The notes beneath the pieces were generated by a model, which worked only from the letters and a program-made list of their open reading frames with translations, was not told the DNA's origin and did no database searches. A stretch of DNA of 64,000 bases, taken from positions 9,152 to 73,151 of the IMG/VR virus record IMGVR_UViG_3300014205_000213; one strand, 5' to 3'. The translations under genes and the position numbers were made by a program. Shown here piece by piece: positions 11,283-26,110 of the stretch. How positions within the stretch are numbered: the first letter of the stretch is position 1; each line of letters opens with the position of its first letter. Origin of the DNA: a virus. Taxonomy: Duplodnaviria; Caudoviricetes.

Positions 11283-11722
11283 AGCCCTGATGTATATTTG
11301 TTCTGTTGTCTAAATCTCTTGGGAGGGCGTTTATCAAAATCTTTTAGCCCTTCCTTTTTTTGTACTGATCTATTCTGAGCATCTGCTATTCCAAGAAGTA
11401 TTTGTTTCATATCTTCAACACTTTGCTGTTTAGGCTCATTTAACTTCTCCAAATCCCAATCAATCATAAAGTCAACTGGTGTGGTAAATTTTGAACCTTT
11501 TTTGCCATGTGTGCTTATTGTTAAGTTTGTTAGTAATGAACACAAATAAGCCAACCTAAAATTACCTGTCCACTCACCTATCGGATCTAATCGATCCATT
11601 GCCTCCCACTCACTTAATTGAGCTGATGTTAATTGCTCTAACAGGTAATCAGGATGGGGATACTTTAATTCTCTGCAGAGTCGGAAGTAGAATTGCCGGG
11701 CTGGCCGGCTTCGAAGTTTTTT
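11279..11722 (-). CDS. Tail assembly chaperone, -1 frameshift extension (GT product)
   Basis: The -1 frame after A AAA AAC is open (LRSRPARQFYFRLCRELKYPHPDYLLEQLTSAQLSEWEAMD...) and runs into ORF 11279..11599. Confidence 0.85.
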   Translation of the reverse strand, partial: KKLRSRPARQFYFRLCRELKYPHPDYLLEQLTSAQLSEWEAMDRLDPIGEWTGNFRLAYLCSLLTNLTISTHGKKGSKFTTPVDFMIDWDLEKLNEPKQQSVEDMKQILLGIADAQNRSVQKKEGLKDFDKRPPKRFRQQNKYTSGL

Positions 11723-12093
11723 ACCAATGCCTCCTTGTCCTCTTCAGATATTGCGTTTAACTCCTGTGCTTTGTTAATTATTGTCTCCAATGTCTTTGCG
11801 CTCATATTTGCAGCAAGTGTTGGATAGTCCCCCGGTTGTAATATTCTATTCCCTTCCTCATCACAAATCGTAAGTACAGCCAATTTAGCACGGAAGTCGT
11901 CCAGTATTGTTTCCACACTGATAACATTCCCTTTCTTGTCCCTGTTTTTTCTTAGCATAGACTGCTCAAAAATATCACGTTCTTTTCCAGTCATCTGGCG
12001 AACGTAAATAAAGTCTCCATTTTCAAATTCCACTTTGACTATTTCAAGTTTTTCCTTAGCCAAAAGTGCTTCTCTGTTAAGTAAATTTCCCAT
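11665..12093 (-). CDS. Tail assembly chaperone (G product)
   Basis: 142 aa between tail tube and tape measure. Confidence 0.85.
   Translation of the reverse strand: MGNLLNREALLAKEKLEIVKVEFENGDFIYVRQMTGKERDIFEQSMLRKNRDKKGNVISVETILDDFRAKLAVLTICDEEGNRILQPGDYPTLAANMSAKTLETIINKAQELNAISEEDKEALVKNFEAGQPGNSTSDSAEN
11716..11722 (-). promoter_or_regulatory. Programmed -1 ribosomal frameshift slippery site A AAA AAC
   Basis: X XXY YYZ heptamer in frame near the end of the chaperone gene; -1 frame open to the tape measure start. Confidence 0.85.
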
Positions 12094-12128
12094 GATTAGT
12101 AAATTTTAAATTGATAAATAATAAAAAT

Positions 12129-12147
12129 AAAAAACCTTGATTAGGTT
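12129..12147 (-). terminator. Short hairpin/attenuator after tail tube gene (AACCT-AATCA-AGGTT then U-run)
   Basis: 5 bp stem, AATCA loop identical to the post-capsid hairpin, followed by a T-run. Confidence 0.45.
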
Positions 12148-12155
12148 GAAAGGTT

Positions 12156-12593
12156 CTACATCCCTAATGCAGCACTTGCGCCTGAATCAGTTTCAACAGA
12201 ACCACTTACCTGAATTGTAACATCCGCTGTGATCTTATCATCAGTTGGAATATTTAAAGGCAATTCAGTGACCAGACCTTCAAACTCCACGGTAGTGGTT
12301 TCTGCGTCCGGTAGAACAATCCGATAATTACCAAGTGCGTTGCTTTCAAAGTCTGTCTTAAACAAGTCGTAAGTCTGACGTGTAAAATTCATTGAAAGCT
12401 GAACAGTACCTGGATTACGAAATCCTCCTTTGAACTCTCGATATCCTCCCGTACTATCCAGGGATGTTACATCAATTGTATCCCTTGACATACCAGGACC
12501 GGTAATCGAGTTTATTTCAGCAATGGCAGCCCATGCGCTACCAGTCCATCTCTGAAATATTGTTCCTACTCCTGCTACAGCATTACTTGCCAT
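12156..12593 (-). CDS. Major tail tube protein
   Basis: Strong SD AAAGGAGG before ATG 12593; EINSITGPGMSRDTIDVTSLDS..GYREF tube motif. Confidence 0.88.
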   Translation of the reverse strand: MASNAVAGVGTIFQRWTGSAWAAIAEINSITGPGMSRDTIDVTSLDSTGGYREFKGGFRNPGTVQLSMNFTRQTYDLFKTDFESNALGNYRIVLPDAETTTVEFEGLVTELPLNIPTDDKITADVTIQVSGSVETDSGASAALGM

Positions 12594-12597
12594 AATT

Positions 12598-12999
12598 TTA
12601 CCTCCTTTGTAAATTAAAGTTAATAACAAATCGAGCACGATTGTGATCATCATAATCCAGAAGTGCGGGGCCACTGGAACATTTGATCATCGTGTATAAA
12701 GTGCTATTCCATGTCTCATTTGCCCGGCCATGGAGAGCATCCTTTATTGCATTAGCCATATTCCAACCATTAACATAACTTAAATCCCGTACCCTTATAT
12801 AAACGGCAGGATATTCGTAACCCACCGTTGTTAACCCCATATAAGGAGGAAACCCTGCCGTGTCAAATATTGTAACACAGTTGTCCGGTTCAGCTGGCTC
12901 ATGTCCTATAAATAAATTGTCAGCAAACTCAACATCAAGTCCTGAGGACTCTCCGAAGGCTTCTAACATATCTTTAATATCAATACTTGGTGCATTCAT
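12598..12999 (-). CDS. Tail terminator / minor capsid-type neck protein
   Basis: Synteny; LFIGHEPAEPDNCVTIFDTAG motif. Confidence 0.7.
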   Translation of the reverse strand: MNAPSIDIKDMLEAFGESSGLDVEFADNLFIGHEPAEPDNCVTIFDTAGFPPYMGLTTVGYEYPAVYIRVRDLSYVNGWNMANAIKDALHGRANETWNSTLYTMIKCSSGPALLDYDDHNRARFVINFNLQRR

Positions 13000-13496
13000 T
13001 TTACCCTTGCGTTTTCTGCAACAATTTTTACAATCATTCCTATACTATTTGATAAATGCGTTTGTAGCCATTTTGGACCTGTATCATTTTCAAAATTAGC
13101 TCCAACCATCTCGTGTACCCAAAAGGCATAATTTGCACCATACCCAAAAATTATAAATTTTTTACCAAGTCCCCCCAACTTCCTTGCTTCTGCCTGTGCC
13201 TCCCACACGGCTCCTTGATAACTGGAAGAGATTGACTGTGCATTAGGACCTACAAAAGATCTATCCATCATTGCTTCCTCTCCCCCTTGAACGGCTCCAC
13301 TTGCTGTTACAACAAACCAACTTGCTTTCAAGTTACCTAAATCCCTTGGTACTTTTGGAAAGGACTTCTCCGTCTTTCTACGTACATATCCAGCACCTTT
13401 GATAAGGCCTTGAACAGATCTTCCTTCTATCTGCTCAATCTCTCTATTGAGTCGGGTTAACACAATGTTAAGCCCTTTTATTTCAGTACCCCACAT
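12996..13496 (-). CDS. HK97 gp10-like tail completion protein
   Basis: VPRDLGNLKASW and YAFWVHE motifs; synteny. Confidence 0.75.
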   Translation of the reverse strand: MWGTEIKGLNIVLTRLNREIEQIEGRSVQGLIKGAGYVRRKTEKSFPKVPRDLGNLKASWFVVTASGAVQGGEEAMMDRSFVGPNAQSISSSYQGAVWEAQAEARKLGGLGKKFIIFGYGANYAFWVHEMVGANFENDTGPKWLQTHLSNSIGMIVKIVAENARVK

Positions 13497-13506
13497 ATCA
13501 TTAAAT

Positions 13507-13884
13507 TTAAGTAAGCCAAGGAGTCAAAAACGCCTTACGTAAAAATTCTGTTGTTGATCCCAATGCTGGTGTTTTTTCAAACCTTTTTATAATTGCTACA
13601 GTATCTACTGTTCTTGGATTTGCTTTTTGTGTTGTAGTCAAATCTGTCAGGCTTCCTAAATAAAGTAATCCATCCTCATCTAGATCCTGTGTCACAACAA
13701 CCTCTGCCCTGGAAATAATTGCTGCCCCGTCGGAGTTTGATAATATTTGCGTTCTATTTTGCCAACGGCAATCAATTTCAACAGGGGTATCAAACGTGAA
13801 GTGCCCAAATCCATCATTCGTTGGATTCGCCCAGTAAACAGCAGTCTGGGAACATCTTGATTGTATAAAACTTTGTATGCTCAT
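13507..13884 (-). CDS. Head-tail adaptor / head closure protein
   Basis: Synteny; QTAVYW..P..DGFG motif. Confidence 0.65.
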   Translation of the reverse strand: MSIQSFIQSRCSQTAVYWANPTNDGFGHFTFDTPVEIDCRWQNRTQILSNSDGAAIISRAEVVVTQDLDEDGLLYLGSLTDLTTTQKANPRTVDTVAIIKRFEKTPALGSTTEFLRKAFLTPWLT

Positions 13885-13887
13885 ATC

Positions 13888-14268
13888 TTATTCATCAAAA
13901 CTTATTATTGCTCTCATTTTCACTGTGCCCTTGCCAAGTTTTGCCATCTTACCAGAGACATCCATTGCTAGAACTGCTTGTCCGTAAGAAGTTGATTCCA
14001 ATTTCTTCCCCCAGGTTCCTGTGTACTTTATACGTGCATCCTGTATTTCTTCCTGAGCCGCTTGTCTCTGTGGTCCACTTGCAATAAGGTGTGCTGTAAA
14101 CCACTTTTCTATCTGCTCCAGTAGAGTATCTCCTGTGGTAGTATCACCAGAGAATACTTGATCCACTACAGCACTTGCTGCAACAATTATGGCATCAATC
14201 ACATCGTCTTCTACGGTACAATTATCCATAATTAATCGAACATCGTCTGCATTAGTTCTTATTGCCAT
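13888..14268 (-). CDS. Head-tail connector protein
   Basis: WFTAHL and LESTSYGQ motifs; SD AAAGGAG upstream. Confidence 0.7.
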   Translation of the reverse strand: MAIRTNADDVRLIMDNCTVEDDVIDAIIVAASAVVDQVFSGDTTTGDTLLEQIEKWFTAHLIASGPQRQAAQEEIQDARIKYTGTWGKKLESTSYGQAVLAMDVSGKMAKLGKGTVKMRAIISFDE

Positions 14269-14986
14269 TTTGTTCTCCTTTCCTTTTTAATCTACTATTC
14301 CACAAAAGCGTATTTATATATATCAGGGCCTCCTCTTTCCATGTTAGCCCTAACCAATCACACAATTCATATAATTGTCGGTAATCCCCATCAACCATTC
14401 TTTCAGGCCAAATTACCTTACAATTAAGTCCCGACGAAATCATTCTAACTATTTTCTTTTCATACTCATGAACCCACCATAACCAACCCTCCCTCTCATT
14501 TTTTGCTCCTACAGCCTGTTGATTCACTTCATTCTTAAATGCCTTCATAAACCCAGTCTTAATACAGGAGTCAATCACGTCTCCCGTCCTACGACGTACA
14601 ATAACCCACTTAGCATCAGGATAATTCATACTCCATATAGGCCAAATTAAAGCACTCCTTGCGTCCTTATACAACCAAGGACCTTTCTTATATCCCTCTG
14701 AAAGTAATATGTTCTCAACCTTTTCTTTCCAACCATCAGGAAAATACAAATAATTCTTACGGTCTGTCAACGGATACTGTCCCATTACATCTAATCCACA
14801 ATCTGAAAGATATGTTTTGACAAGATCTTCTCTTATCCTTACATTTTCAAACATACCCCGCTTTGCATTCTGATTCCCACCAACCATTGTGCCCCCAAAG
14901 GCACCACACATATTAATTGTAGCAGCAATCATACTTGCACCACTTCTGGGACACCCTGTAATTAATATTGGAGAATGTGTTATCAT
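14252..14986 (-). CDS. Sulfotransferase-family protein
   Basis: ILITGCPRSG-AS PAPS-binding loop; WLYKD; WVIVRR; Y(RQ)L..LCDWLGL. Confidence 0.7.
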   Translation of the reverse strand: MITHSPILITGCPRSGASMIAATINMCGAFGGTMVGGNQNAKRGMFENVRIREDLVKTYLSDCGLDVMGQYPLTDRKNYLYFPDGWKEKVENILLSEGYKKGPWLYKDARSALIWPIWSMNYPDAKWVIVRRRTGDVIDSCIKTGFMKAFKNEVNQQAVGAKNEREGWLWWVHEYEKKIVRMISSGLNCKVIWPERMVDGDYRQLYELCDWLGLTWKEEALIYINTLLWNSRLKRKGEQNGNKN

Positions 14987-16269
14987 TCCATATATCTTTT
15001 TCGTACTTCTTCTCTTTCTTTGTCCTTTTGTTCTTTTGCAACGGTCCTCACCTTTTGAAGAGGATGCCTCCTATATATTGCCAAAACATTTGGACAGTAA
15101 CCTATTTTAAATCCAGCTTTCAAACATCTTAAATGAAATTCAAATTCTTCTGCAGTGTTTAGTGTTTCGTCAAAACCTCCGATCTTTGTAAATATCTCCC
15201 TTCTATACATTGTTGTTGCGCTGTGAATAACATTCTTGCTTAAAAGATCCTGTAAGGTAGGGATAAGTATATTAGGGGATTTCCTAACACGTCTTTGCTC
15301 ACCCTCTTTCGCCTCAATAGCATCTCCGTGAATAAAGTCAACATTTTGCTCTTCAATGGCTTTTACGGAGTCAGTAATACAATTTGGAGTAAGCATATCA
15401 TCCTCATGTAAATATCGTATGTATTTCCCCTCCGCTTGACTTAACACCTTATTAAAATTTGCTGGCCAATTTCCTCCCCCTTGACTTACAAGTAATTGAA
15501 CATCTTTAGGAACACTTGCAATTGCATCCTTTAACCACCCTCTGTCCACTTTGTATGGAATGATTACAGTTACTTCTGCCTTTTTTCTTCTCTCCGGGAA
15601 CTCTTCTTCAACATACCTTTTTACCCAATCTACAGTCATTGACGCTTCAACAACGGTAAAAATACGGGGTTTCCCATGAAAGCATACCAGGTTAGCATCG
15701 GCAGGTAATTGTGTTAATATAATACCAGGCTTTGGTTTGAAATCATAAATGGTTGTTGTTAACTTTTGCCAATACGTATCTGGCTGACATATTGACCTTA
15801 TATAGTAATCCATCCTCCATCCAAGTGGACCCTTAAACGAATCCCAAACTTTATTTGTCTTATCACAATTTTTGGGGAACCAAACTAATCCAGTAGCCAA
15901 TTGATCCCTTTGCCAAAAATCCTCAAGTGTTATGAATTGGGAATCATCTCGAATTAAATTAAATATATTTTCCAATGACCGAATAACAGCAGTATCCAAA
16001 TCAACATATAAAAAAGGTTTGTACTGTTCCATTTCCGGACTGTACAATTGAATACGAGACCACGTCCCTGGTTCTTTATTTGTTAATGGAATAAATTCAA
16101 TGTTTCCTAAATCATAAGATTCAGTAACCTTATCCCAAAGACAAATAATACGAGGACGCAGATCTGATTGCCATTTACCATTAATATGATTTGCAATCAA
16201 TTCTACATCACGGAATTTAAAATCACCTCCGCTCCGTAATACCAAGACTATTGTTTTTCTATCTTCCAT
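14983..16269 (-). CDS. Two-domain glycosyltransferase (GT8-like plus GT2)
   Basis: N-half LYVDLDT (DxD) and CFHGKPR; C-half VIIPY, YLHEDD, EEFEFHLR GT2 motifs. Confidence 0.8.
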   Translation of the reverse strand: MEDRKTIVLVLRSGGDFKFRDVELIANHINGKWQSDLRPRIICLWDKVTESYDLGNIEFIPLTNKEPGTWSRIQLYSPEMEQYKPFLYVDLDTAVIRSLENIFNLIRDDSQFITLEDFWQRDQLATGLVWFPKNCDKTNKVWDSFKGPLGWRMDYYIRSICQPDTYWQKLTTTIYDFKPKPGIILTQLPADANLVCFHGKPRIFTVVEASMTVDWVKRYVEEEFPERRKKAEVTVIIPYKVDRGWLKDAIASVPKDVQLLVSQGGGNWPANFNKVLSQAEGKYIRYLHEDDMLTPNCITDSVKAIEEQNVDFIHGDAIEAKEGEQRRVRKSPNILIPTLQDLLSKNVIHSATTMYRREIFTKIGGFDETLNTAEEFEFHLRCLKAGFKIGYCPNVLAIYRRHPLQKVRTVAKEQKDKEREEVRKRYME

Positions 16270-17221
16270 GAGCTTTCTTATCTATCCAATCATAGGTAAC
16301 AATCAATCCTTCTTGTAATGAACGAGTAGGAGCCCAATGTAACTTCTCTCGAATAAGTTTATTATCTGAACAGCGCCCTCTAACACCAAGAGGTCCTTTT
16401 ATGTGTTTTATGGTTAATGCCTTGTCTGAAATATTCATAATCATTCGTGCCAAGGAATTAATTGTAATCATTTCCTCTGATCCAATATTAATAGGTTCCA
16501 AATAATCTGAATCCATTAATTTTCTGACACCGAGTAAACACTCATCAATGAATAAGAATGAACGAGTCTGTTCTCCATCCCCCCAAACTTCAATCTCTTC
16601 GCCATTCTTAGCCATAGCAACTTTCCTACATAATGCTGCCGGAGCCTTCTCTCTACCATCGTTCCAAGCACCTTCAGGACCAAACACATTATGAAATCTT
16701 GCTATTCTCATATCTAATCCGTAATTCCGATGGAAGGATAAATACATTCTTTCACTGAACAACTTCTCCCAACCATACTCACTATCAGGATTTGCCGGGT
16801 ATGCCGAATGCTCTGCACAATTCGGATTATTTGGATCCATTTGATTGTGTTCAGGGTACATACAAGCAGAACTGGAATAAAATATCTTTCCAGCCCCAAC
16901 CTCAACAGCCCTTCTTGCCACATGAAGATTTATAAGAGCATCGTTACTTATTATGTCGGCGTCATGTTCTCCGGTAAAGATGTATCCAGCTCCTCCCATA
17001 TCTGCAGCAAGTTGATACACTTCGTCAAACCCCCTATTAAAAACATAATCCACATTATTTACATATCGTAAATCTTTCAAATAAAAGTCATCGGCTGCTG
17101 TTCTGGAAAACTCGGGACTTTTTAAATCCACTCCACGAACCCAATATCCTTCTTCTTTTAATTGCCGAACAAGATGAGATCCTATAAAACCTCCTGCTCC
17201 AAGTACCAATGCTGTTTTCAT
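16259..17221 (-). CDS. NAD-dependent nucleotide-sugar epimerase, GDP-mannose 3,5-epimerase-like
   Basis: GAGGFIG, AADMGGAGYI, YSSSACMYPE, YGWEK, RFHNVFGP. Confidence 0.88.
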   Translation of the reverse strand: MKTALVLGAGGFIGSHLVRQLKEEGYWVRGVDLKSPEFSRTAADDFYLKDLRYVNNVDYVFNRGFDEVYQLAADMGGAGYIFTGEHDADIISNDALINLHVARRAVEVGAGKIFYSSSACMYPEHNQMDPNNPNCAEHSAYPANPDSEYGWEKLFSERMYLSFHRNYGLDMRIARFHNVFGPEGAWNDGREKAPAALCRKVAMAKNGEEIEVWGDGEQTRSFLFIDECLLGVRKLMDSDYLEPINIGSEEMITINSLARMIMNISDKALTIKHIKGPLGVRGRCSDNKLIREKLHWAPTRSLQEGLIVTYDWIDKKAHGR

Positions 17222-17233
17222 AATGTATTTATT

Positions 17234-18886
17234 TCATTGTTCATAACAACTTTTTATTTTATTTTTCCAATATTCAAATGATAACTCCTGTCTGCCCCAT
17301 GGGATCTTTGAAATCCTTTCATATTCCTTATTTAAAAAATCTTCCGTAATCTCTTCCCAATTATTAACAAAACAAATTGGAAGATGTTCAAAAAAGGAAG
17401 TGAATACACTTCTCTTCATAACAGGAATACAACCAATATATAAGCATTCCCAGGTACGATGTGTATCTATTCCATTGCCCTCTGGACATGCCATAAATTT
17501 ATGAATTCCCATTTCTTTAAATGAAGTGGTAAAACTCTTATTACCATTTTTTCCATTCTTAACAGTTGCCCAATCTTTATCAACAAACAATTGATTTATT
17601 TGATTCCTTTCCCCTGGATTGGTGTCTACATTATGATTTACTAAAAGTAATTTACTTTTAGAGGAAGGATGGCTCATCATAAATTCTATTATCTTCCTTT
17701 TATCCCAACTTTCCTTCCACATATCATTTTCCAGTCCGATTGGAATAGGCTCAATCTTTGGATGCTTTACATCTACATTCATCACAAATAACTTTCGAAC
17801 ATTGTCGGGGATACTATATTCCTCTTCTTCTCTTAATTTTCTATTTCCATTGTACCAACGTATCTTACCATCTCCAAAATGGTGATCCCCATTATGTGCA
17901 ATAATTATAAATTCATTAGGTAAGTACTCCACAATCTTCAACAATTTACCAACATACATAACATTCGTATATACAATATTGACTGGTTTAAGATCACAAG
18001 GATCAAATGAATTTTCATATTTTAAATAATCATCGGGGCATTTGGTCCTAGGAGAATATATAGAATGAGCCAACTCTGCAAATTTATCACCTTGAACCCA
18101 ATCCACCCCCGCATTCTTATTAATCCAAGATACCTCCCAATAATGAATTGCATAGGAGTCTTCCTTAATATACTTTCTTCCATCTTCCATCTTATGCCCT
18201 TTATAATTTGGAAAAGGGTAAAAATAATCTGCGGGAGGGAAAGCCAACACACCAGGTGTATATTGTTGAATAACTTTAAAAAATGTATCTGTAAAGAAGT
18301 ATGCACCTGTTGTTGCTAAGGCTCTATTCTTTATCAAGTCCCTTACTGTTATTGTACTCACCCCTTCCACAATCTTACTCATAATAGGATTGTTTGGAGT
18401 ACATCCAATTAATCCAGGATACAATTCAACCTTTGTTGGGTATCCCACACTAATAAAGAAATTGAGGTATTCAAAATCACTAAATGATCTTAAACATTCA
18501 AAATCCGTATCAGCATAAATCCCTCCAAATCTATTAAGAATATTATATCGCATTATGTCAGATCGTACTCCGTAATTAGTAATGCGTTCAAAGTTATGCA
18601 TATTTGACATCTTCAAACCAGGAATGTCTTTATCCGTCCATAATCTATATTCATAATTGGGATTAAATTTTTTCCAAGATTTTGTCCATTCCTTATACTT
18701 CTCAGGTAAAGGACTTCCTAACCATATTTGATGAATTATTTTTGGAATCCCTTCTTCTTTTGTAGAACAAGACACCCAATTCTTATTGTATAACTCTTCC
18801 AATAACTTCCAACGCCAATCCGATGAAAACACATTTTCATCAAATTCGAGAACACGACTCATCAATATATTAAATGTCTCCTTCAT
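17234..18886 (-). CDS. Glycosyltransferase fusion: GT32 (DXD) plus exostosin/GT47-like domain
   Basis: IPKIIHQIWLG, SDIMRYNIL..FGGIYADTD; C-terminal FMACPEGNGIDTHRTWECLYIGCIPV. Confidence 0.8.
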   Translation of the reverse strand: MKETFNILMSRVLEFDENVFSSDWRWKLLEELYNKNWVSCSTKEEGIPKIIHQIWLGSPLPEKYKEWTKSWKKFNPNYEYRLWTDKDIPGLKMSNMHNFERITNYGVRSDIMRYNILNRFGGIYADTDFECLRSFSDFEYLNFFISVGYPTKVELYPGLIGCTPNNPIMSKIVEGVSTITVRDLIKNRALATTGAYFFTDTFFKVIQQYTPGVLAFPPADYFYPFPNYKGHKMEDGRKYIKEDSYAIHYWEVSWINKNAGVDWVQGDKFAELAHSIYSPRTKCPDDYLKYENSFDPCDLKPVNIVYTNVMYVGKLLKIVEYLPNEFIIIAHNGDHHFGDGKIRWYNGNRKLREEEEYSIPDNVRKLFVMNVDVKHPKIEPIPIGLENDMWKESWDKRKIIEFMMSHPSSKSKLLLVNHNVDTNPGERNQINQLFVDKDWATVKNGKNGNKSFTTSFKEMGIHKFMACPEGNGIDTHRTWECLYIGCIPVMKRSVFTSFFEHLPICFVNNWEEITEDFLNKEYERISKIPWGRQELSFEYWKNKIKSCYEQ

Positions 18887-19412
18887 TTATAACTTGTGCA
18901 ATTAGTATGTCATTAGGAACTTCACCGAAATCATAAGTTATCTTGTATTTAGGATTAATAGAATGTATGTATTCTTCAATATCACATATACAATAAGGAA
19001 ACTTAAACCACTCCTTTTCTCTTTCTTTAATCAATCGAATATCGTCAATTAGAATGGTATGAGTTTTTATGTGATGATTACCTATTATCTTTAATTCATC
19101 CATTAATGGAGAAGTATTTTGTTCCCCTCCTGAACCTCCACCACAATAGTGTGCGTCTAACCAAAAAGTACAAGGTTCGTCAATACCACTTAATATCTGT
19201 GGTAAAATGACTAACGAATCCCCATGATATAATTTTACTCTCCTCTTTCTATTGCCATAGCGATTCTTACAAATAAGATAACAGGGTTCAAATACCTCAA
19301 TAGAATGTATCTTTGGAAATTTGGCCTGCAGTGCAGCATGAATCCCTTCTCCTCCAGCTGATCCCGTTTCAATAAAGATGTTATTCATATATGGCTTAAA
19401 ATTCCTTTTCAT
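18870..19412 (-). CDS. Class I SAM-dependent methyltransferase-like protein
   Basis: FIETG, SIE, LYHGDS, FWLDAH, ILIDD pattern. Confidence 0.65.
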   Translation of the reverse strand: MKRNFKPYMNNIFIETGSAGGEGIHAALQAKFPKIHSIEVFEPCYLICKNRYGNRKRRVKLYHGDSLVILPQILSGIDEPCTFWLDAHYCGGGSGGEQNTSPLMDELKIIGNHHIKTHTILIDDIRLIKEREKEWFKFPYCICDIEEYIHSINPKYKITYDFGEVPNDILIAQVINEGDI

Positions 19413-20056
19413 AATTTACCTTCCTTTCTATATAGGGCATCCCCCCAATGTGCCTTTGTCATTTTTGTAACAACCCTTTTAAAATTGAAATTATTTAGAT
19501 ATGCATCTATTTCTGAAATCAAAGCACATTCTTTCCTTACATACTCATCACAAACCTCAGAATAAATGTAATCCAATTTCCTAATTGAGTCTCCTAAACT
19601 TTTTAATACATTCAATTCAGTACCCTCAACATCAACATTTAAAAAATTATAATCCGAAATATCCCTACCACTGTACTCAAAAAAATCATCCAGTCTCGTC
19701 AACCTGATTACCTGATCTCTCACATACCGAACTTGTGGATGATATTTTTTATGTGTTCCTAAAGCCAATAATGAAGAGCTTTGTCCCTCATTATTTGCAA
19801 TATGTAAATTAGCCTTTTTTAATGTATCGTGAATCCCAATATTAAAAAATTCATTATTTTTTAATTCACATATTCTCTTTTCCAAGATAGGGATTAACTC
19901 TACATTTGGTTCAAACCATAACACCTTTGTAAAACCGTATTGTTGGTACCACTCACACTCCTCTCCAATATTGGCTCCAACATGAATGGCTCCTCTACAA
20001 GGCTTATCTAAATACTTATGAAGATCTGTTATTAGCATAATTATATTCTTATCCAA
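19409..20056 (-). CDS. FkbM-family methyltransferase
   Basis: IHVGANIG, WFEPN, TRLD, NVDVEGTELNVL. Confidence 0.85.
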   Translation of the reverse strand: MDKNIIMLITDLHKYLDKPCRGAIHVGANIGEECEWYQQYGFTKVLWFEPNVELIPILEKRICELKNNEFFNIGIHDTLKKANLHIANNEGQSSSLLALGTHKKYHPQVRYVRDQVIRLTRLDDFFEYSGRDISDYNFLNVDVEGTELNVLKSLGDSIRKLDYIYSEVCDEYVRKECALISEIDAYLNNFNFKRVVTKMTKAHWGDALYRKEGKL

Positions 20057-20829
20057 TGTTCTGGTATAAATCCCTGTTCCTTAATTTTCTCTTCCTGATC
20101 ATCTCTTAACCTCCACCTCAACGGAGCCATGGTCATTCCATTATAAATATCACCCACCATTGCCGCCCACCAGCTAAATGTACTGTTTGCAACAATCTTA
20201 TGAGGACATAATCGCATCAAATCAAAAGATAGGTAATCAACTTCGTTGACAAAGACAAAATGACTTCCTATAAAATTTTCCTTACACCAAGTAACATCAT
20301 CAGAAAAGACGTAAACCTTCCCTTCCACCTTTTTTTCAACAAGCATGTCTAATGCCTTAGCATAATATTCTATTGGTAATAAATGATGTCCTTTAGTCAA
20401 GTAATCCCCCCGACGAACATGTAATGCAATAGACTCACTACAGACTATCTGTTCTTTCAATTCAAGATACCTTTCGGTATATAATTTTGGACGAACTTTA
20501 AAGTGCTCTCTTAATAAGGGTAAAACATTTTGTACATACCCTTGATGTTGCCAATAACCAAAGAAGTTGACATCTTCCATGGTTAGGTATTCTGGATTAA
20601 ATGTATAGCCTTCTGAATCGGATTCATGAATAGTTTTTTTGTTCATAAATCCTCCAACCGAAATATCTGTCCTAAACTTATTTAACGCAAAGGGACGTGG
20701 AGGATCCGCTGGTTTTGCAAACCAAGATAGATCATAACAAACCTTAATTCCATTTGCCTCCATTGATTTACCAAAGGCATACTGGAACATTTGATTTCCT
20801 AATCCCGCATATATTTTTACAACATTCAT
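20041..20829 (-). CDS. Alpha-1,2-fucosyltransferase-like (GT11)
   Basis: GLGNQMFQYA, HVRRGDY, VFSDD, ANSTFSWWAA. Confidence 0.9.
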   Translation of the reverse strand: MNVVKIYAGLGNQMFQYAFGKSMEANGIKVCYDLSWFAKPADPPRPFALNKFRTDISVGGFMNKKTIHESDSEGYTFNPEYLTMEDVNFFGYWQHQGYVQNVLPLLREHFKVRPKLYTERYLELKEQIVCSESIALHVRRGDYLTKGHHLLPIEYYAKALDMLVEKKVEGKVYVFSDDVTWCKENFIGSHFVFVNEVDYLSFDLMRLCPHKIVANSTFSWWAAMVGDIYNGMTMAPLRWRLRDDQEEKIKEQGFIPEHWIRI

Positions 20830-21521
20830 TGAAGTAATTCTTTAACTGTGGTTTTCCTGAATTCAATAATTGCACTATCAGGACATGCATTAATGATCTC
20901 AACTCCTATCTTTTTAGCGTCCTCTGCAATGTACTTAAACCTCCTTAAAAATTTATCAAAGGGCAATCCCATTCTTCTTCGTTCCTCAACAATCTTACCC
21001 CTCAAATATATATCATGCCAATGTTGGTAGTCCTCTTTACTTAATTTCATATCAAACCCCAACAAAATAATTCTCTTGGCTCCTAAATGTACGGCTAAAT
21101 TAATTGCCGCCGAACCTGAATTCCCATTCCAACTTACCTTGTTAGGATGTTGACTTAACCCTCGTGGATGTTCCTTGTCTTTATCAACATACTTAATCCA
21201 CTTCTGTTTATTCTGATGTGGTTCACATGTAACCTTTACTCCAGGGAATTTGGATAATTCGTTTACATACCTCAAATAAAATCCAGTGTCTCCATAAAAA
21301 ACCATGTCAATCCAATCCCCTATCATAAAAGCCACATTAACTCCTATTACATGTTTGTCATGTATTCCTTTCATGTATGGAGAGTAGACGCTGGGTGGGG
21401 AAGTCCTATCAGTAACACTCTTAACAACTTCAACAGGTATGTCAAATTGTTCAGTTACGGAAGGACCTCCTCCAATGATCCATACGTCACCACCATCCCA
21501 TATTTTAGGAATAGTCCACAT
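20826..21521 (-). CDS. DUF115/Maf-like (MptE-like) putative glycosyltransferase
   Basis: VWIIGGGPS, IGVN, NSGSAAINLAVHLGAKRIILLGFDM. Confidence 0.65.
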   Translation of the reverse strand: MWTIPKIWDGGDVWIIGGGPSVTEQFDIPVEVVKSVTDRTSPPSVYSPYMKGIHDKHVIGVNVAFMIGDWIDMVFYGDTGFYLRYVNELSKFPGVKVTCEPHQNKQKWIKYVDKDKEHPRGLSQHPNKVSWNGNSGSAAINLAVHLGAKRIILLGFDMKLSKEDYQHWHDIYLRGKIVEERRRMGLPFDKFLRRFKYIAEDAKKIGVEIINACPDSAIIEFRKTTVKELLQ

Positions 21522-21522
21522 T

Positions 21523-21882
21523 TTATTCAGTCAAGGTTTCAATGAACTTGTCAGCCTTCTCCTTTGTCAACCCTTTCTCATTGAGCTTCTTCCCTTTCCC
21601 ATTAAATACATCCCATACTCCCTCTTCATCCTCTCTCTCCTTTGCTTCGAAGGTAGGGAGGCTTCCAAGCATCTCTTTGTACTCCTGTATGGCCTTTGCA
21701 TCAATTTTAATAATAACATCACGGAAGGCTTCGGGTACTTCTTCCTCGGTTGCTTCAAACACCTGATTCGGCTTGATTATCTTTTTTGATCCTTTTATTA
21801 CCAGGCGGCAACCTCCACCACCTATTTTCCTCCAACGATAAATTTCATTGGGTTCTTCTGATTTTTTATTTTTTCTTTCCAT
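21523..21882 (-). CDS. Hypothetical protein (post-capsid)
   Basis: 119 aa ORF tiling the operon. Confidence 0.6.
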   Translation of the reverse strand: MERKNKKSEEPNEIYRWRKIGGGGCRLVIKGSKKIIKPNQVFEATEEEVPEAFRDVIIKIDAKAIQEYKEMLGSLPTFEAKEREDEEGVWDVFNGKGKKLNEKGLTKEKADKFIETLTE

Positions 21883-21895
21883 AATCGTATAAATT

Positions 21896-21916
21896 AAAAA
21901 ATGACTTGATTAGTCA
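21896..21916 (-). terminator. Short hairpin/attenuator after capsid gene (TGACT-AATCA-AGTCA then U6)
   Basis: 5 bp stem, AATCA loop, T6 tail directly after the capsid stop. Confidence 0.45.
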
Positions 21917-21923
21917 ATAATTT

Positions 21924-23039
21924 TTAAGCCATGTGGATAATACCACAACGACCGTTCTGATCTGACCTGATCTGAGGAACCTGAATGGTCATTACTTTGA
22001 ATTTAGTAATCATCCCTCCTTCTTCCCCCCACTGAATATTCTGGAGACCTAAACCACGTACAAGACGTACAGTCTCTTTATTCATCTCAACAAGAAGAAC
22101 GTTATCAGCCGGCAGAGAATCAACAACCTTTATACCTTCTATCTTGGAAATCTTCAAAATCCTTTCACGGATTGTTGTTCCAGGAGTAGTGGCATCGTAA
22201 TCCTCATCAATGACTGTCTCATAATTGGAAGGGATGTATAACATCCAAGGACCATAATGATAATCATTAAGACTTAGTTGCTTCATCTCCAAAACCTGGG
22301 AAACAATGGTGGCTCCGGGAGTTGCTAAATCGTCCCAATGAGTTCCAATTGCTTTGATATTCCTGTCCGGGAAATTGATGTAACTATAAATCTTGTTACG
22401 GCTTCTGCTATCCAGTTCACCAAATGCATAAGAGGTGTCCGTAAACAGCATGTTTTCCAATTTTTCAGCTACCTTCCTTGCAGCCCTTTCAGCTGAAGTT
22501 GTATCCAGGGGATTCCCCATATTACGGCTGGCAGCCAATACCCTTGCGTTAATCTCATAATCAACGTGTATGATAGGTATCGGCAAGTAGTTATGCTGGT
22601 AAACAGGACGATCCCCCTTTGAACGTGTAATTCCGTCCATTGTGAGATCAGCCTCAAAAGCATCACTTACATCATGCCATTCAAGAACGGTTGTTGCCAT
22701 TGCATTCCCAAGATTGTAAGTCAGGCCTTTTTCAATAAGATCCTGAACACCATTCAACCGGTAACGAGCAACATCCATAACAGCTTCATCAAGAGCCTTC
22801 CACTCATCCCTCTGGAGAGTAGCAGTTGCGTTTGTCTGTAACGGAACAGCCTTATAACTTTCTTTCTTAGTCGGGTCACCCGTACATACAGTCATGTAGG
22901 CTATTCCAGTTGTTAAGTCGATGAAGGGTTTCATCCTCCCTACGTCAAGGCGACCTCTGTTTGCCAACATGTTGGCTACAACACCCATCGTCCTTCCATC
23001 GGCTCCAATAAGGTCAACTTTAGCACCTGTGCGTTTCAT
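21924..23039 (-). CDS. Major capsid protein (HK97 fold, encapsulin/linocin-like)
   Basis: 371 aa; strong SD; position after decoration gene; LPIPIIHVDYEINARVL, AARKVAEKLENMLF. Confidence 0.85.
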   Translation of the reverse strand: MKRTGAKVDLIGADGRTMGVVANMLANRGRLDVGRMKPFIDLTTGIAYMTVCTGDPTKKESYKAVPLQTNATATLQRDEWKALDEAVMDVARYRLNGVQDLIEKGLTYNLGNAMATTVLEWHDVSDAFEADLTMDGITRSKGDRPVYQHNYLPIPIIHVDYEINARVLAASRNMGNPLDTTSAERAARKVAEKLENMLFTDTSYAFGELDSRSRNKIYSYINFPDRNIKAIGTHWDDLATPGATIVSQVLEMKQLSLNDYHYGPWMLYIPSNYETVIDEDYDATTPGTTIRERILKISKIEGIKVVDSLPADNVLLVEMNKETVRLVRGLGLQNIQWGEEGGMITKFKVMTIQVPQIRSDQNGRCGIIHMA

Positions 23040-23068
23040 ATAACTTTCCTCCTTTTTTTATGTTATAA

Positions 23069-23524
23069 CTAAATTATTTGAATAAGAACACGAGGATTGT
23101 AATATGCTCCACCTTCACTGGATTCAGAACCTTCAGGAAGGCTAGAAAGATTCACTGCCTCAACAGCAACACCAACAATAACTCCGCTGGTGTATTCCTG
23201 TACTTTTCCTTCCCCATTGGACTCAACAAAGTCACCAATAGCAATATTGGCTTCATCTTCCAGTAAAGCGTATACAATATCTCCACGTCCAGGTATCCAA
23301 ACCTGTACCTGATCTCCAGCGGCATAATCATCATTAATCCCATTCCCCTGAAGTTCATCCTCAATCGCAAACATGAACGCATGCTTTCCAGCAGCAGTAG
23401 CATGTTCCTTTACAGTACCGGTACTGGTAAATTCCAGTAACGAACCGGGTGTAATTGCAGCATTAGCAACCTTCTCAATACGAACGTTTGAGTAGTTTGT
23501 TACTTTGATAGTATTTTTTGCCAT
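23069..23524 (-). CDS. Capsid decoration/cement protein
   Basis: 151 aa between protease and capsid; AITPGSLLE..., YAAGDQV motifs. Confidence 0.65.
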   Translation of the reverse strand: MAKNTIKVTNYSNVRIEKVANAAITPGSLLEFTSTGTVKEHATAAGKHAFMFAIEDELQGNGINDDYAAGDQVQVWIPGRGDIVYALLEDEANIAIGDFVESNGEGKVQEYTSGVIVGVAVEAVNLSSLPEGSESSEGGAYYNPRVLIQII

Positions 23525-23538
23525 ATCGTTCTCCTTTC

Positions 23539-24012
23539 TTATTTACTATCAACAAATTTAACATCTGTAGGATATAAAGGTTCAACCCCACTGTCCTCGT
23601 TGACATGTAGTTCAGCACCTGCTCCTAAGGAATAATCTGCTGGAGCCTCATCCTCTTTCTTAACAGAGTTGAAGATCCTCTCAAGGTGTTCTTCACTCAT
23701 AGTAACCAGTACATCATCAGGCCACAGTTCCTTACTGGTATTTGCCTGAATCCCTTTAACCAAATTCTCCCGCCTCAGTTTCATCTGCTTCTTACCATAG
23801 GCAAGTGCTGCAGCATCTTCTGGAGCAAGTTTGTTCACATCGATTGTTTTCTCAACCGTCTTCTCGATCACCTTTGGGGTGAGTCTGTCAAGAACGGATT
23901 CTTCCTGAGTCATCAACCATTCCCGATCTGCTTCTTTCCAGCCAGAGTCCTTATTTGAAATCAAGGCTTCGACCTTTGCAAGGCAGTTGGGACAATTTTT
24001 CGCATTTGACAT
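23539..24012 (-). CDS. Nested scaffold protein from internal ATG (MSNAKNCPNC...)
   Basis: AAAAAGGAGG 8 nt upstream of an in-frame ATG at 24012. Confidence 0.6.
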   Translation of the reverse strand: MSNAKNCPNCLAKVEALISNKDSGWKEADREWLMTQEESVLDRLTPKVIEKTVEKTIDVNKLAPEDAAALAYGKKQMKLRRENLVKGIQANTSKELWPDDVLVTMSEEHLERIFNSVKKEDEAPADYSLGAGAELHVNEDSGVEPLYPTDVKFVDSK

Positions 24013-25137
24013 AGTTTTGTCCTCCTTTTTATGATTAATACTAAACTTAGTTCGCTGAACCGTGTTTGCCACGTATTCAACCTTTTTACGCACTTCTTCA
24101 GGATCTCCACTCAATTCAATAACCCCGCTATTGAAAGAGTAACCCTGTTTGTACATCTTGGATTCGCCAACCCTAAAATGAACAGCATAAACCAAATAAT
24201 CCTCATACACCTCTTCAAGCATATGATAACTATCATTGGTATCCATACCATCCAATTTACGACGAGCGGCGTCTACAAGTTCTTTGTACCCCTCATTCGC
24301 GATGACTCCCTGCATCTGGGATACAGCATAGCCCTCGGCGTTTAAGGTTCTCATCGTTTGAAACACTTCTTTTTTCACATTTTTTCCTCCTTTCTTATTG
24401 TTAGAACGAAGCCCACAACCATCCTCTACAGAACAAGCACCTGTCCCGCCGGGCAAGAGAGCCAAATGATCTGGCCTGTGATTCCTGGCTATCGCTTCAT
24501 ACGTTTCACCTTCCCATTCCCCTTCAACTTCTTCCTCTTCATTAAATACACCCACACTCACTTCCACTACCTCTCTCTTATTTATCATCGCAAGTGTCGG
24601 GGAGTGCACTTGCCTTAATTTCTCTTCATCAATCCAAACTTCAGCCTTGAGTTTATTACCATCAACATGTGTATGATACACACGCCCAACAACTCTACTA
24701 TCAACTATGTCAGGGGCATTGGCCGAAACATTCTGTCCATCCACCTCAGGATGATCTACAATGACAGGAATACCATCCCAAGCTCCAGGAAATTTACCAA
24801 GTTCGGCTATGGTGTGTAATAATGGACCATGACTACCATTATGTACACCTTCCACCATCATTGTTACTGGAATAACCAAGTGCTTTTTTCCTTGATGCTG
24901 AGCAACAACAACTGTGTACGCTTCCTCAATTTCAACTGTATGTATAGAGAAATTCATATCCGTATTCCCTACAACACCATTTGCCTGCCTAATTGCTGAG
25001 GCATCACATTCACTTTCAGGCTTACCTTTTTTCAAACAAGCAGCACGAGCTGAATTTGCGACTTCCACCCAACGCTTCTTTTGAGCATCAGTTAGTCCTT
25101 TTTTGTGTTTATCAACATCTTTAACGGTCCATGGCAT
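23539..25137 (-). CDS. Prohead protease/scaffold (DUF2213-like) with ChaB-like N-terminus
   Basis: EVSVG, NHRPDHLALLPGGTGACS; N-terminal MPWT...AQKKRWVEVANS; acidic/helical C-terminal scaffold. Confidence 0.75.
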   Translation of the reverse strand: MPWTVKDVDKHKKGLTDAQKKRWVEVANSARAACLKKGKPESECDASAIRQANGVVGNTDMNFSIHTVEIEEAYTVVVAQHQGKKHLVIPVTMMVEGVHNGSHGPLLHTIAELGKFPGAWDGIPVIVDHPEVDGQNVSANAPDIVDSRVVGRVYHTHVDGNKLKAEVWIDEEKLRQVHSPTLAMINKREVVEVSVGVFNEEEEVEGEWEGETYEAIARNHRPDHLALLPGGTGACSVEDGCGLRSNNKKGGKNVKKEVFQTMRTLNAEGYAVSQMQGVIANEGYKELVDAARRKLDGMDTNDSYHMLEEVYEDYLVYAVHFRVGESKMYKQGYSFNSGVIELSGDPEEVRKKVEYVANTVQRTKFSINHKKEDKTMSNAKNCPNCLAKVEALISNKDSGWKEADREWLMTQEESVLDRLTPKVIEKTVEKTIDVNKLAPEDAAALAYGKKQMKLRRENLVKGIQANTSKELWPDDVLVTMSEEHLERIFNSVKKEDEAPADYSLGAGAELHVNEDSGVEPLYPTDVKFVDSK

Positions 25138-25156
25138 AACTTTGTCCTCCTATATT

Positions 25157-26110
25157 TTATTCATATTTAACCAAATCCTCAAAATATGGTAAAGCCATAC
25201 ACCTACAATCCGGGTGTAATGGAATCATATATTCAATTTCATCAAGTGTAAATATCTTTCCTTCCATTGAGGCACATTTTGGACACACTCTATTATCTCC
25301 TGCCGTTATCCATTCACCCTTTACAGTAACTCCAAGAACACCCCAATTCCTGTATTCCTGTATTGTTGCTAAATGATGTGCTCGTATAATTCCAGTACGT
25401 GATAATAATGTTGCTCTTTGTAAGGCAGGGATAAAACGCCCTATGCTATCCTTTAGGGCAAGATCACCTAAGTTGGATCCGTTTATAGCGGCAACAAGTT
25501 TGCGGGCGAGCAAGGCAGGCCCATCACCATCTGCCAAGCCCTGTGCTAATATTCTACTAATAATTGTATCCATATCAGCCGTTATACCCTTTAAATCACT
25601 GTATGCCCTGGCAAATATTAAACCAAGACGATCAATATGAAAGGGTAGACCCATAACAATATCAATACCTCCAGACTCATCAATGCTCTTAACGTCAAAC
25701 CCAGCCTTTCTCATTTCATACCTGGCACGTATAACACCCCTCTTATAAGAGTCAAACAGATAAATGTTCATCCAGTTATCTTCAACAGGTCTTCCTATCT
25801 GTCGTAAATGCCCTACCTCCAATATGCCATTATCTACTTGTTCATTTAACCACTTCATAAAAGCCTCCAGCTTGTCAGCATTCCTTGCATAGTTAAACTG
25901 TTGCCAACTTGGAGGAGTCATTTGATGTAACACTAATTTATCTTTAGACAAACCAAAACAATCCTGTCTTACAATAGCAACGACAACCAACAACAACAAT
26001 TCATTAAATCGTTGTTTCATAGCGTTGGAAAAAACTTTCCTCAACGTCGTTGTGTGCGTTGGATCATAGCTTTTGACAAGGCCTTTTGATATGGTTATCT
26101 CCTCTATCAT
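25157..26110 (-). CDS. Head morphogenesis protein (SPP1 gp7/MuF-like)
   Basis: WITAGDNRVCPKC and PLHPDCRC motifs. Confidence 0.85.
   Translation of the reverse strand: MIEEITISKGLVKSYDPTHTTTLRKVFSNAMKQRFNELLLLVVVAIVRQDCFGLSKDKLVLHQMTPPSWQQFNYARNADKLEAFMKWLNEQVDNGILEVGHLRQIGRPVEDNWMNIYLFDSYKRGVIRARYEMRKAGFDVKSIDESGGIDIVMGLPFHIDRLGLIFARAYSDLKGITADMDTIISRILAQGLADGDGPALLARKLVAAINGSNLGDLALKDSIGRFIPALQRATLLSRTGIIRAHHLATIQEYRNWGVLGVTVKGEWITAGDNRVCPKCASMEGKIFTLDEIEYMIPLHPDCRCMALPYFEDLVKYE

Follow-up and report, generated by a model that had tools for sequence, protein, structure and literature searches.

A hypervariable island of glycan-building genes in the head module of an uncultured phage clade: a proposed virion-glycosylation locus

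The tailed phage (Duplodnaviria; Caudoviricetes) represented by IMG/VR virus record IMGVR_UViG_3300014205_000213 carries an island of eight minus-strand open reading frames (ORFs), g1 to g8, between its major capsid gene and its head–tail genes. The island (14252-21521) encodes glycosyltransferases, methyltransferases, a sugar-nucleotide epimerase and a sulfotransferase. All positions refer to the window, the 64,000-nucleotide stretch analysed here (positions 9,152 to 73,151 of the 73,151-bp record, which CheckV rates as 100% complete). Comparison with related phages reveals that this slot is a clade-wide hypervariable locus whose two ends are conserved while its interior is exchanged. We lean, at slightly better than even confidence, towards reading the island as this phage's form of a virion-glycosylation locus that evolves fast and spans the clade, in which case the particle would bear a sugar chain specific to the strain and possibly sulfated.

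A hypervariable slot with conserved ends

IMG/VR contains 201 relatives of the major capsid protein, at ~60-70% identity, and we fetched 80 of the corresponding loci. Forty-four of these contain the capsid gene together with the first head–tail gene and are referred to below as complete islands. In every one of these, an island lies between the two genes, with a homologue of the first head–tail gene directly after it; the islands span 1.0-9.7 kb, and the one in the window 7.66 kb. They contain 338 ORFs in 58 clusters, of which just three are near-universal: u119, a small ORF next to the capsid gene (43 loci), g1 (41 loci) and g8 (38 loci). g1 is fixed at the capsid side and g8 at the head–tail side, and the other 55 clusters are variable. 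A preliminary description of this DNA had spoken of an inserted cassette and had proposed a synteny search in related phages. Insertion between capsid and head–tail genes stands, and the same position is occupied in all relatives that span it, but the phrase understates a locus that is clade-wide, hypervariable and bounded by conserved ends.

The interior turns over faster than the capsid gene beside it. Among five phages with capsid proteins of 93-95% identity, the mean Jaccard index of interior genes is 0.23, and one of the five has no interior genes. We characterized the interior by a Pfam census (a tally of the top 25 families over the 58 cluster representatives) together with 20 proteins scanned singly. 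The glycosyltransferases comprise GT2 (nine clusters), GT4, GT9, GT10, GT11, GT32, GT92 and GT114-like families, accompanied by Capsule_synth, many S-adenosylmethionine (SAM) methyltransferases, FkbM, Polysacc_synt_2, a DegT aminotransferase, a TupA-type ATP-grasp enzyme, a B12-radical SAM enzyme and sugar-nucleotide enzymes; one relative also encodes a second sulfotransferase, fused to a methyltransferase. The guanine–cytosine (GC) content is 0.364 in the island and 0.429 in the capsid gene, and the island is the lower of the two in 44/44 loci. The gene set of the window is matched most fully in two relatives, L005 and L022. At the other extreme, the nearest cultured capsid relative, a Brevundimonas phage (34%), has a capsid gene, a small ORF and head–tail genes, and no island. 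Our literature search found no description of such an island, or of a sulfotransferase, in a phage structural module.

Enzymes at the two conserved ends

The capsid-side gene g1 encodes the catalytic core of a Maf/GT42-like glycosyltransferase. Pfam MptE-like (PF01973) reaches 25.1 bits, below its 34.6 cut-off, and matches residues 128-162 alone. The fold is clearer. An AlphaFold2 (AF2) model built from 54 homologues, with a predicted local distance difference test (pLDDT) of 97, finds its best VIA-align match in the Maf core (5mu5_A, residues 262-511; Z 14.1, root-mean-square deviation 3.8, 189 residues aligned), followed by the Cst-I sialyltransferase (Z 10.5) and the archaeal MptE kinase (Z 10.2), a gap of 3.6 Z to the next hit; Foldseek returns CstII (2.6e-5) and Maf (3e-4). 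g1 therefore resembles in fold the Maf flagellin glycosyltransferases (Magnetospirillum Maf, PDB 5mu5) and, next to them, the GT42 sialyltransferases CstII and Cst-I; it carries a GGGPS nucleotide-binding loop and a conserved GFDM...HWH segment. Unlike full-length Maf (about 630 residues), it lacks the flanking N- and C-terminal (substrate-binding) domains. Maf enzymes act on a structural protein in the cytoplasm, glycosylating it before assembly. On its modeled fold, g1 is a candidate primer, that is, a protein O-glycosyltransferase. The g1 family is large: clustered at 90% identity, it gives at least 1,740 clusters, none of them named.

Two relatives have the Maf-like domain at the N-terminal end of a much longer protein: 1108 residues with two GT2 domains in L067 (3585-6908), and 1020 residues with GT4/GT1 domains in L074 (11137-14196). 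These fusions tie g1 to the chemistry of the interior. Distant g1 homologues (~28% identity, 1e-7 to 3e-11) also occur in the cultured Pseudomonas phages D3, PMG1 and PAJU2, where, as in their relatives, the gene sits between the major head gene and the head–tail adaptor. In D3 (L089, NC_002484.2 5691-6409) two overlapping ORFs are annotated at this place, orf6.5/orf7, as 'alpha-2,3-sialyltransferase'. The D3-type gene keeps an NSG...GAKRIILLG[FY]DM...HWH segment, and its alignment covers g1 residues 55-231 only. The D3 head–tail module also contains a methyltransferase gene.

At the opposite end, g8 is a sulfotransferase that would use 3'-phosphoadenosine 5'-phosphosulfate (PAPS). Its Pfam Sulfotransfer_3 score of 25 bits falls just below the cut-off of 27, and the assignment is carried by fold and by motifs. 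The AF2 model (pLDDT 93) aligns best in VIA-align with the tyrosylprotein sulfotransferases (TPSTs) TPST1, TPST2 and tick TPST (Z 15.4-15.5; next class Z 13.2); sulfotransferases fill the first 12 VIA-align rows and the first 20 Foldseek rows, with TPST2 at 4.3e-5 in the latter. The 5'-phosphosulfate loop R14-S15-G16 is invariant, as is R132 of the 3'-phosphate site, while D136 and S140 are kept in 32/33 sequences. The conserved Glu47 is a possible catalytic base. Among 50,697 cultured-phage records, g8 has no tblastn match.

The human TPST1 and TPST2, the tick enzyme and the bacterial carbohydrate sulfotransferases Stf1 and Stf9 all have the PAPS-type fold seen in g8, but with only 14-17% identity to g8 the substrate class is not readable from the fold. 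One relative, L072, has a minimal island consisting of a 75-residue ORF and an intact g8 (11127-12070), with no glycosyltransferase there; L072 is a 17.8-kb fragment. Since g8 is kept in L072 without an island glycosyltransferase, and since its model lies nearest to TPSTs, its substrate may be a protein instead of a glycan. The sulfated glycan of the preliminary description consequently holds as far as the presence of a sulfotransferase goes, and less firmly for what is sulfated. Another relative, L053, keeps g1 and has no g8. Taken together, these two loci indicate that the conserved enzymes are not strictly reliant on an adjoining phage-built glycan.

Interior enzymes and genomic setting

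The first interior gene, g2, matches GT11, the alpha-1,2-fucosyltransferase family, at 86 bits against a 23.9 cut-off and carries the motifs GLGNQMFQYA, HVRRGDY and STFSWWAA. It is followed by an FkbM methyltransferase, g3, above the cut-offs of both PF05050 (63.8 bits vs 22.7) and TIGR01444 (62.4 vs 37.7). g4 has no sequence match in Pfam, PHROG or PDB; its ESM Atlas model is similar to methyltransferases of the class I SAM and FkbM types (template modeling score 0.82-0.89), and the protein contains an ETGSAGGEG motif, so a second methyltransferase is plausible at the level of fold.

g5 joins two glycosyltransferase domains. The N-terminal one matches the GT32-type family PF04488 (3.8e-14). 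The C-terminal one is a clear homologue of chlorovirus A075L (PDB 8avq, 8q8i, 8asa; 1.2e-36 over chain residues 88-278). A075L, the founding member of CAZy family GT114, is the PBCV-1 beta-xylosyltransferase whose acceptor is an L-fucose of the capsid N-glycan; N148, R158 and R208 bind its donor, T112 and H122 its acceptor, and Asp73 is the catalytic base (PMC11571054). The g5 domain keeps equivalents of N148, R158 and R208; T112 and H122 are not kept. Asp73, in the N-terminal Rossmann domain, lies outside the phmmer alignment, which begins at residue 88. Across 35 non-redundant complete islands, GT114-like and GT11 domains occur together in 11, GT11 alone in 1, GT114-like alone in 0 and neither in 23 (Fisher 2.9e-8), such that a GT114-like domain is always accompanied by GT11. 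This pairing fits the fucose acceptor of A075L; the pair may have a single origin.

g6 aligns with the Arabidopsis guanosine diphosphate (GDP)-mannose 3,5-epimerase, including the catalytic SSAC, YGWEK (YGLEK in the plant enzyme; YGxEK) and GREKAP segments and, within them, the catalytic Cys, Tyr-x3-Lys and Lys. Its PHROG match is phrog_540 (1.2e-74), and the next-best family, UDP-glucose 4-epimerase, follows at 2e-27. From these alignments, g6 is a putative source of GDP-L-galactose or GDP-L-gulose from GDP-mannose. True g6 orthologues are found in 4 fetched loci, and GT11 is present in 4/4 of them. When the whole cassette was searched at the nucleotide level against cultured phages, it matched over g6 alone, in cyanophage and marine-virus records; identity is 65-70% to genes of the marine cyanomyoviruses S-SCSM1, S-CAM9 and P-TIM68 and to single-cell marine virus records. 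This suggests that g6 has been exchanged between aquatic phages.

The last interior gene, g7, is again a two-domain glycosyltransferase (phrog_1962, 3.7e-22). The C-terminal domain passes the Pfam cut-offs for GT2 families. g7 alone gives no Pfam GT8 match, and GT8-like is a fold-family call made at the level of a profile: the N-domain family profile (A4) matches 6mw5 (4.9e-6), 5gvv (9.8e-6) and LgtC (5.7e-5), all of GT77/GT8, with D90 and D92 invariant. In five relatives (L073, L076, L080, L026 and L060) the GT8-like domain occurs as 2-3 tandem stand-alone paralogues, which points to local expansion of this module.

In total, the island holds six glycosyltransferase domains: Maf/GT42-like, GT11, GT32-like, A075L/GT114-like, GT8-like and GT2. 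The preliminary description had proposed an eight-gene coupled cassette with about six such domains plus tailoring enzymes, and it agrees with the ORF list to the base, with structural genes on both flanks and adjacent genes that overlap by 4-17 nt or are spaced by 1-12 nt. Its domain calls are all upheld. The GT11, the FkbM methyltransferase and the GDP-mannose 3,5-epimerase-like enzyme rest on strong family or homologue matches, and the Maf-like transferase and the sulfotransferase on fold and profile or motif evidence despite Pfam scores under the cut-offs; the GT8-like+GT2 fusion holds at the levels given above, and the second methyltransferase is plausible from the fold of its ESM Atlas model. 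For the proposed GT32+GT47-like fusion, the GT32-type half is confirmed and the other half matches A075L/GT114. Table 1 collects the coordinates.

Table 1. Island genes, flanking genes and selected genes of related islands
Feature	Coordinates	Strand	Assignment or position
g1	20826..21521	-	Maf/GT42-like glycosyltransferase core, 231 residues; phrog_4603, 1e-30; conserved 5' island end
g2	20041..20829	-	GT11; PF01531, 3.6e-24
g3	19409..20056	-	FkbM-family methyltransferase; PF05050, 2.9e-17
g4	18870..19412	-	Plausible second SAM-dependent methyltransferase, fold-level call from ESM Atlas model
g5	17234..18886	-	Two-domain glycosyltransferase; GT32-type DXD N-domain ~41-210, A075L/GT114-like C-domain ~359-545
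g6	16259..17221	-	GDP-mannose 3,5-epimerase-like short-chain dehydrogenase/reductase; PDB 2c59, 6.8e-94, residues 6-316
g7	14983..16269	-	Two-domain glycosyltransferase; GT8-like retaining GT-A N-domain 6-217, GT2 C-domain 229-409
g8	14252..14986	-	PAPS-type sulfotransferase; fold and both PAPS-binding motifs; conserved 3' island end
u119	21523..21882	-	Small Lys/Glu-rich protein between capsid gene and g1
Major capsid protein	21924..23039	-	phrog_771, 1.4e-21; upstream boundary of island
Decoration- or scaffold-like protein	23069-23524		Flank
ht1, first conserved head–tail gene	13888..14268	-	Weak phrog_302 'virion structural protein'; downstream boundary of island
Connector and neck genes	12598-13496		Flank
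Major tail protein	12156-12674		Flank
Relative L080	11747-12949		Second sulfotransferase + methyltransferase fusion
Relative L012	9210-10310		B12-binding radical SAM enzyme
Relative L071	12078-12938		Polysacc_synt_2 dehydratase, immediately after g1
Relative L020	16351-17523		DegT aminotransferase

The run of genes is unbroken at both ends of the island: u119 lies 1 base upstream, and the first head–tail gene overlaps by 17 nt downstream. The capsid assignment is supported by tblastn, in which the gene matches capsid proteins annotated in Brevundimonas and halo-archaeal phages (3e-48). u119 has no match in Pfam or PHROG, and its ESM Atlas model is of low confidence and uninformative, giving no fold or family; possible roles are those of a head accessory protein and of a glycan carrier. 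Two relatives, L012 and L042, have it as a tandem duplicate.

No tRNAs were found in the window, and a promoter and terminator scan of 11000-27000 stayed at chance level; the Bacteroidota -33/-7 promoter pattern was found 8 times vs 4.6 expected, which is no enrichment. Five of the eight related contigs binned in metagenome-assembled genomes fall in Bacteroidota, a weak hint of the host. The lifestyle is apparently lytic.

Target of the island and comparison with known systems

We envision the following course if the virion is the target. Eight soluble enzymes would be produced late, alongside capsid and head–tail proteins, a timing suggested by gene coupling and position. g6 would turn host GDP-mannose into GDP-L-galactose or GDP-L-gulose. 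The candidate primer g1 would attach a first sugar directly to a virion protein in the cytoplasm, and the chain would be lengthened by the GT11, GT32-like, GT114-like, GT8-like and GT2 domains, with the GT114-like domain probably acting on the L-sugar added by GT11, as A075L acts on fucose in the chlorovirus capsid glycan. The two methyltransferases would cap hydroxyls, and g8 would draw on host PAPS to place sulfate on the glycan or, directly, on a virion protein. Supply of GDP-mannose and PAPS depends on the host; the genome contains no nucleoside diphosphate (NDP)-sugar pyrophosphorylase, no adenosine 5'-phosphosulfate kinase and no other genes of nonulosonic-acid, NDP-sugar or PAPS synthesis. 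A more specific form of this proposal, a 'virion serotype locus' in which the Maf-like enzyme primes a capsid or tail protein, swapped enzymes build strain-specific glycans and the TPST-like enzyme sulfates the glycan or tyrosines, is one we hold tentatively and on the doubtful side.

Several lines of evidence favor a virion target: the fixed place of the island in the head module of all spanning relatives, its translational coupling to capsid and head–tail genes, the soluble appearance of all eight enzymes, the homology of the g5 C-domain to a capsid-glycan xylosyltransferase, and the proximity of the g1 and g8 folds to protein-modifying enzymes (Maf on flagellin, TPSTs on tyrosines). The mycobacteriophage precedent adds to these, as glycosyltransferases and an O-methyltransferase of such phages are reported to modify capsid and tail tube (Freeman et al. 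2023, as cited by PMC11600133 and PMC12619734). The particle decoration put forward in the preliminary description is accordingly the best fit, strengthened by comparative genomics, though it is unproven and a search for acceptor motifs came out negative.

Alternatively, the enzymes might act during infection on a glycoconjugate of the host envelope, such as lipopolysaccharide, capsule, or an S-layer or flagellar glycan, and remodel it; a possible benefit is receptor masking, which would keep progeny from being lost on debris and already infected cells. Alteration of host surface glycans by phage glycosyltransferases is well known (PMC12619734). The low GC content and fast gene turnover recall bacterial surface-polysaccharide loci, and the families GT2, GT4, GT9, Capsule_synth and Polysacc_synt_2 are characteristic of pathways for envelope glycans. 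Glycosyltransferases of the O-antigen type are often soluble. However, neither a priming phosphoglycosyltransferase, a flippase, a polymerase nor a Gtr-type protein is among the families listed by the top-25 tally and the 20 single scans. None of the eight window proteins has a membrane-like segment, and most hydrophobic peaks in the 338 ORFs of relatives correspond to a buried core strand of g1. The genome, rated complete, encodes no integrase or resolvase and hence offers no lysogen for serotype conversion, which disfavors lysogenic conversion as a purpose. The invariant head-module position and the protein-modifying enzymes closest in fold to the conserved genes also argue against a host target, and we consider host remodeling unlikely. 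We also considered a seroconversion system of the Gtr, Oac or Wzy type, which pairs a temperate phage with modification enzymes embedded in the membrane, and set it aside on the same absence of an integrase or resolvase and of membrane-like segments in the eight proteins.

A somewhat less probable alternative still is that two separate systems share one permissive slot, g1 and g8 adding a single sugar and a tyrosine sulfate to virion proteins while the interior genes serve an unrelated end, such as synthesis of a free or lipid-linked oligosaccharide or of a modified metabolite. Consistent with it, g8 stands alone in L072 and g1 in L053, Pseudomonas phage D3 and its relatives have a lone g1-like gene at this position, and TPSTs are nearest to g8. 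On the other hand, the fusions in L067 and L074 link g1 covalently to GT2 or GT4 domains, the interior genes always lie within the g1–g8 bracket and are translationally coupled to it, and, L072 being a 17.8-kb fragment, that genome may have glycosyltransferases elsewhere. Glycosylation of phage DNA, with a base hypermodified by an oligosaccharide, seems to us very improbable. Phage glycosyltransferases can indeed hypermodify DNA with several sugars, as a preprint reports (bioRxiv 10.1101/2023.12.21.572611). But the locus sits in the head module in every relative, and its best homologues act on capsid glycans, on flagellin or, as sulfotransferases, on proteins. Six glycosyltransferase domains together with sulfation and two methylations also exceed any DNA glycan known to us.

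Returning to virion glycosylation, a number of observations weigh against it. Virion and other proteins were compared for Ser-Gly, [ST]-G, acidic-Ser-Gly and DSSG acceptor motifs, and composition accounts for the excess seen in the virion proteins (Ser-Gly, 6.3 observed vs 5.9 expected per 1000); the C-terminus of the capsid protein carries no Ser/Thr-rich tag. In eight virion proteins of relatives with and without g8, few Tyr, Ser or Thr columns differ with g8 loss, and those differences are confounded by lineage. The CMP-nonulosonic-acid pathway, an expected need of a Maf/GT42-type enzyme, is not in the genome. Soluble glycosyltransferases also build lipid-linked O-antigens, which makes solubility compatible with host targets. 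The late timing depends on gene coupling, the promoter scan having remained at chance level, and since a quick capsid-protein tree is star-like, the gene co-occurrences may stem from shared descent. The virion target remains a proposal.

To our knowledge, virion glycosylation by phage-encoded enzymes has been demonstrated only for a few mycobacteriophages. If the proposal holds, particle self-glycosylation would be widespread in environmental phages and evolve as fast as bacterial surface antigens, implying strong selection on the particle surface as met by hosts, grazers and defence systems. The known chemistry of virus particles would then extend to sulfation and L-galactose-type sugars, and GT114 would connect the capsid-glycan enzymology of phages and giant viruses. 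Were the serotype-locus form correct, a sulfated post-translational modification would for the first time be placed on a phage particle, and the locus would be a phage analogue of bacterial O-antigen diversity, with an enzyme in common with chlorovirus capsid glycosylation. The g1-like gene at the same place in the cultured phage D3 and its relatives provides an experimental handle and makes a first test practical.

The island resembles three kinds of known system, each in part. Bacterial O-antigen, capsule and flagellar glycosylation islands are likewise low-GC sets of fast-swapped glycosyltransferase, methyltransferase and sugar-nucleotide genes between conserved flanks, but the present island is located in a phage head operon; of the export and priming functions of bacterial islands, only a weak Capsule_synth match (0.00024) in one relative is seen, with no polymerase, flippase or priming transferase among the listed families. 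In the mycobacteriophages (cluster O Corndog-type and cluster F Che8-type), tandem phage glycosyltransferases and an O-methyltransferase reportedly act in the cytoplasm on capsid and tail-tube subunits (Freeman et al. 2023, as cited by PMC11600133 and PMC12619734). The island differs from these in its enzyme families (Maf-like, GT11, GT32, GT114-like and GT8-like, plus an epimerase and a sulfotransferase), in its form, a locus with conserved ends and hypervariable content across a large uncultured clade, and in a capsid protein where no C-terminal Ser/Thr acceptor tag is seen. With chlorovirus PBCV-1, it has in common multi-domain glycosyltransferases and, as predicted from its methyltransferase genes, methylated sugars. 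A075L and its homologue in g5 are both soluble and virus-encoded, and where A075L acts on L-fucose, the GT114-like domain of the island goes with a GT11 L-fucose/L-galactose-type transferase; the phage host is bacterial, not algal, and the GT114-like domain is joined to a GT32-type domain. The chlorovirus system, and not the mycobacteriophage one, therefore shares a real homologue with the island. The island stands apart from both in its hypervariability between conserved ends, its Maf-like candidate primer, its putative L-sugar-forming epimerase and its sulfotransferase.

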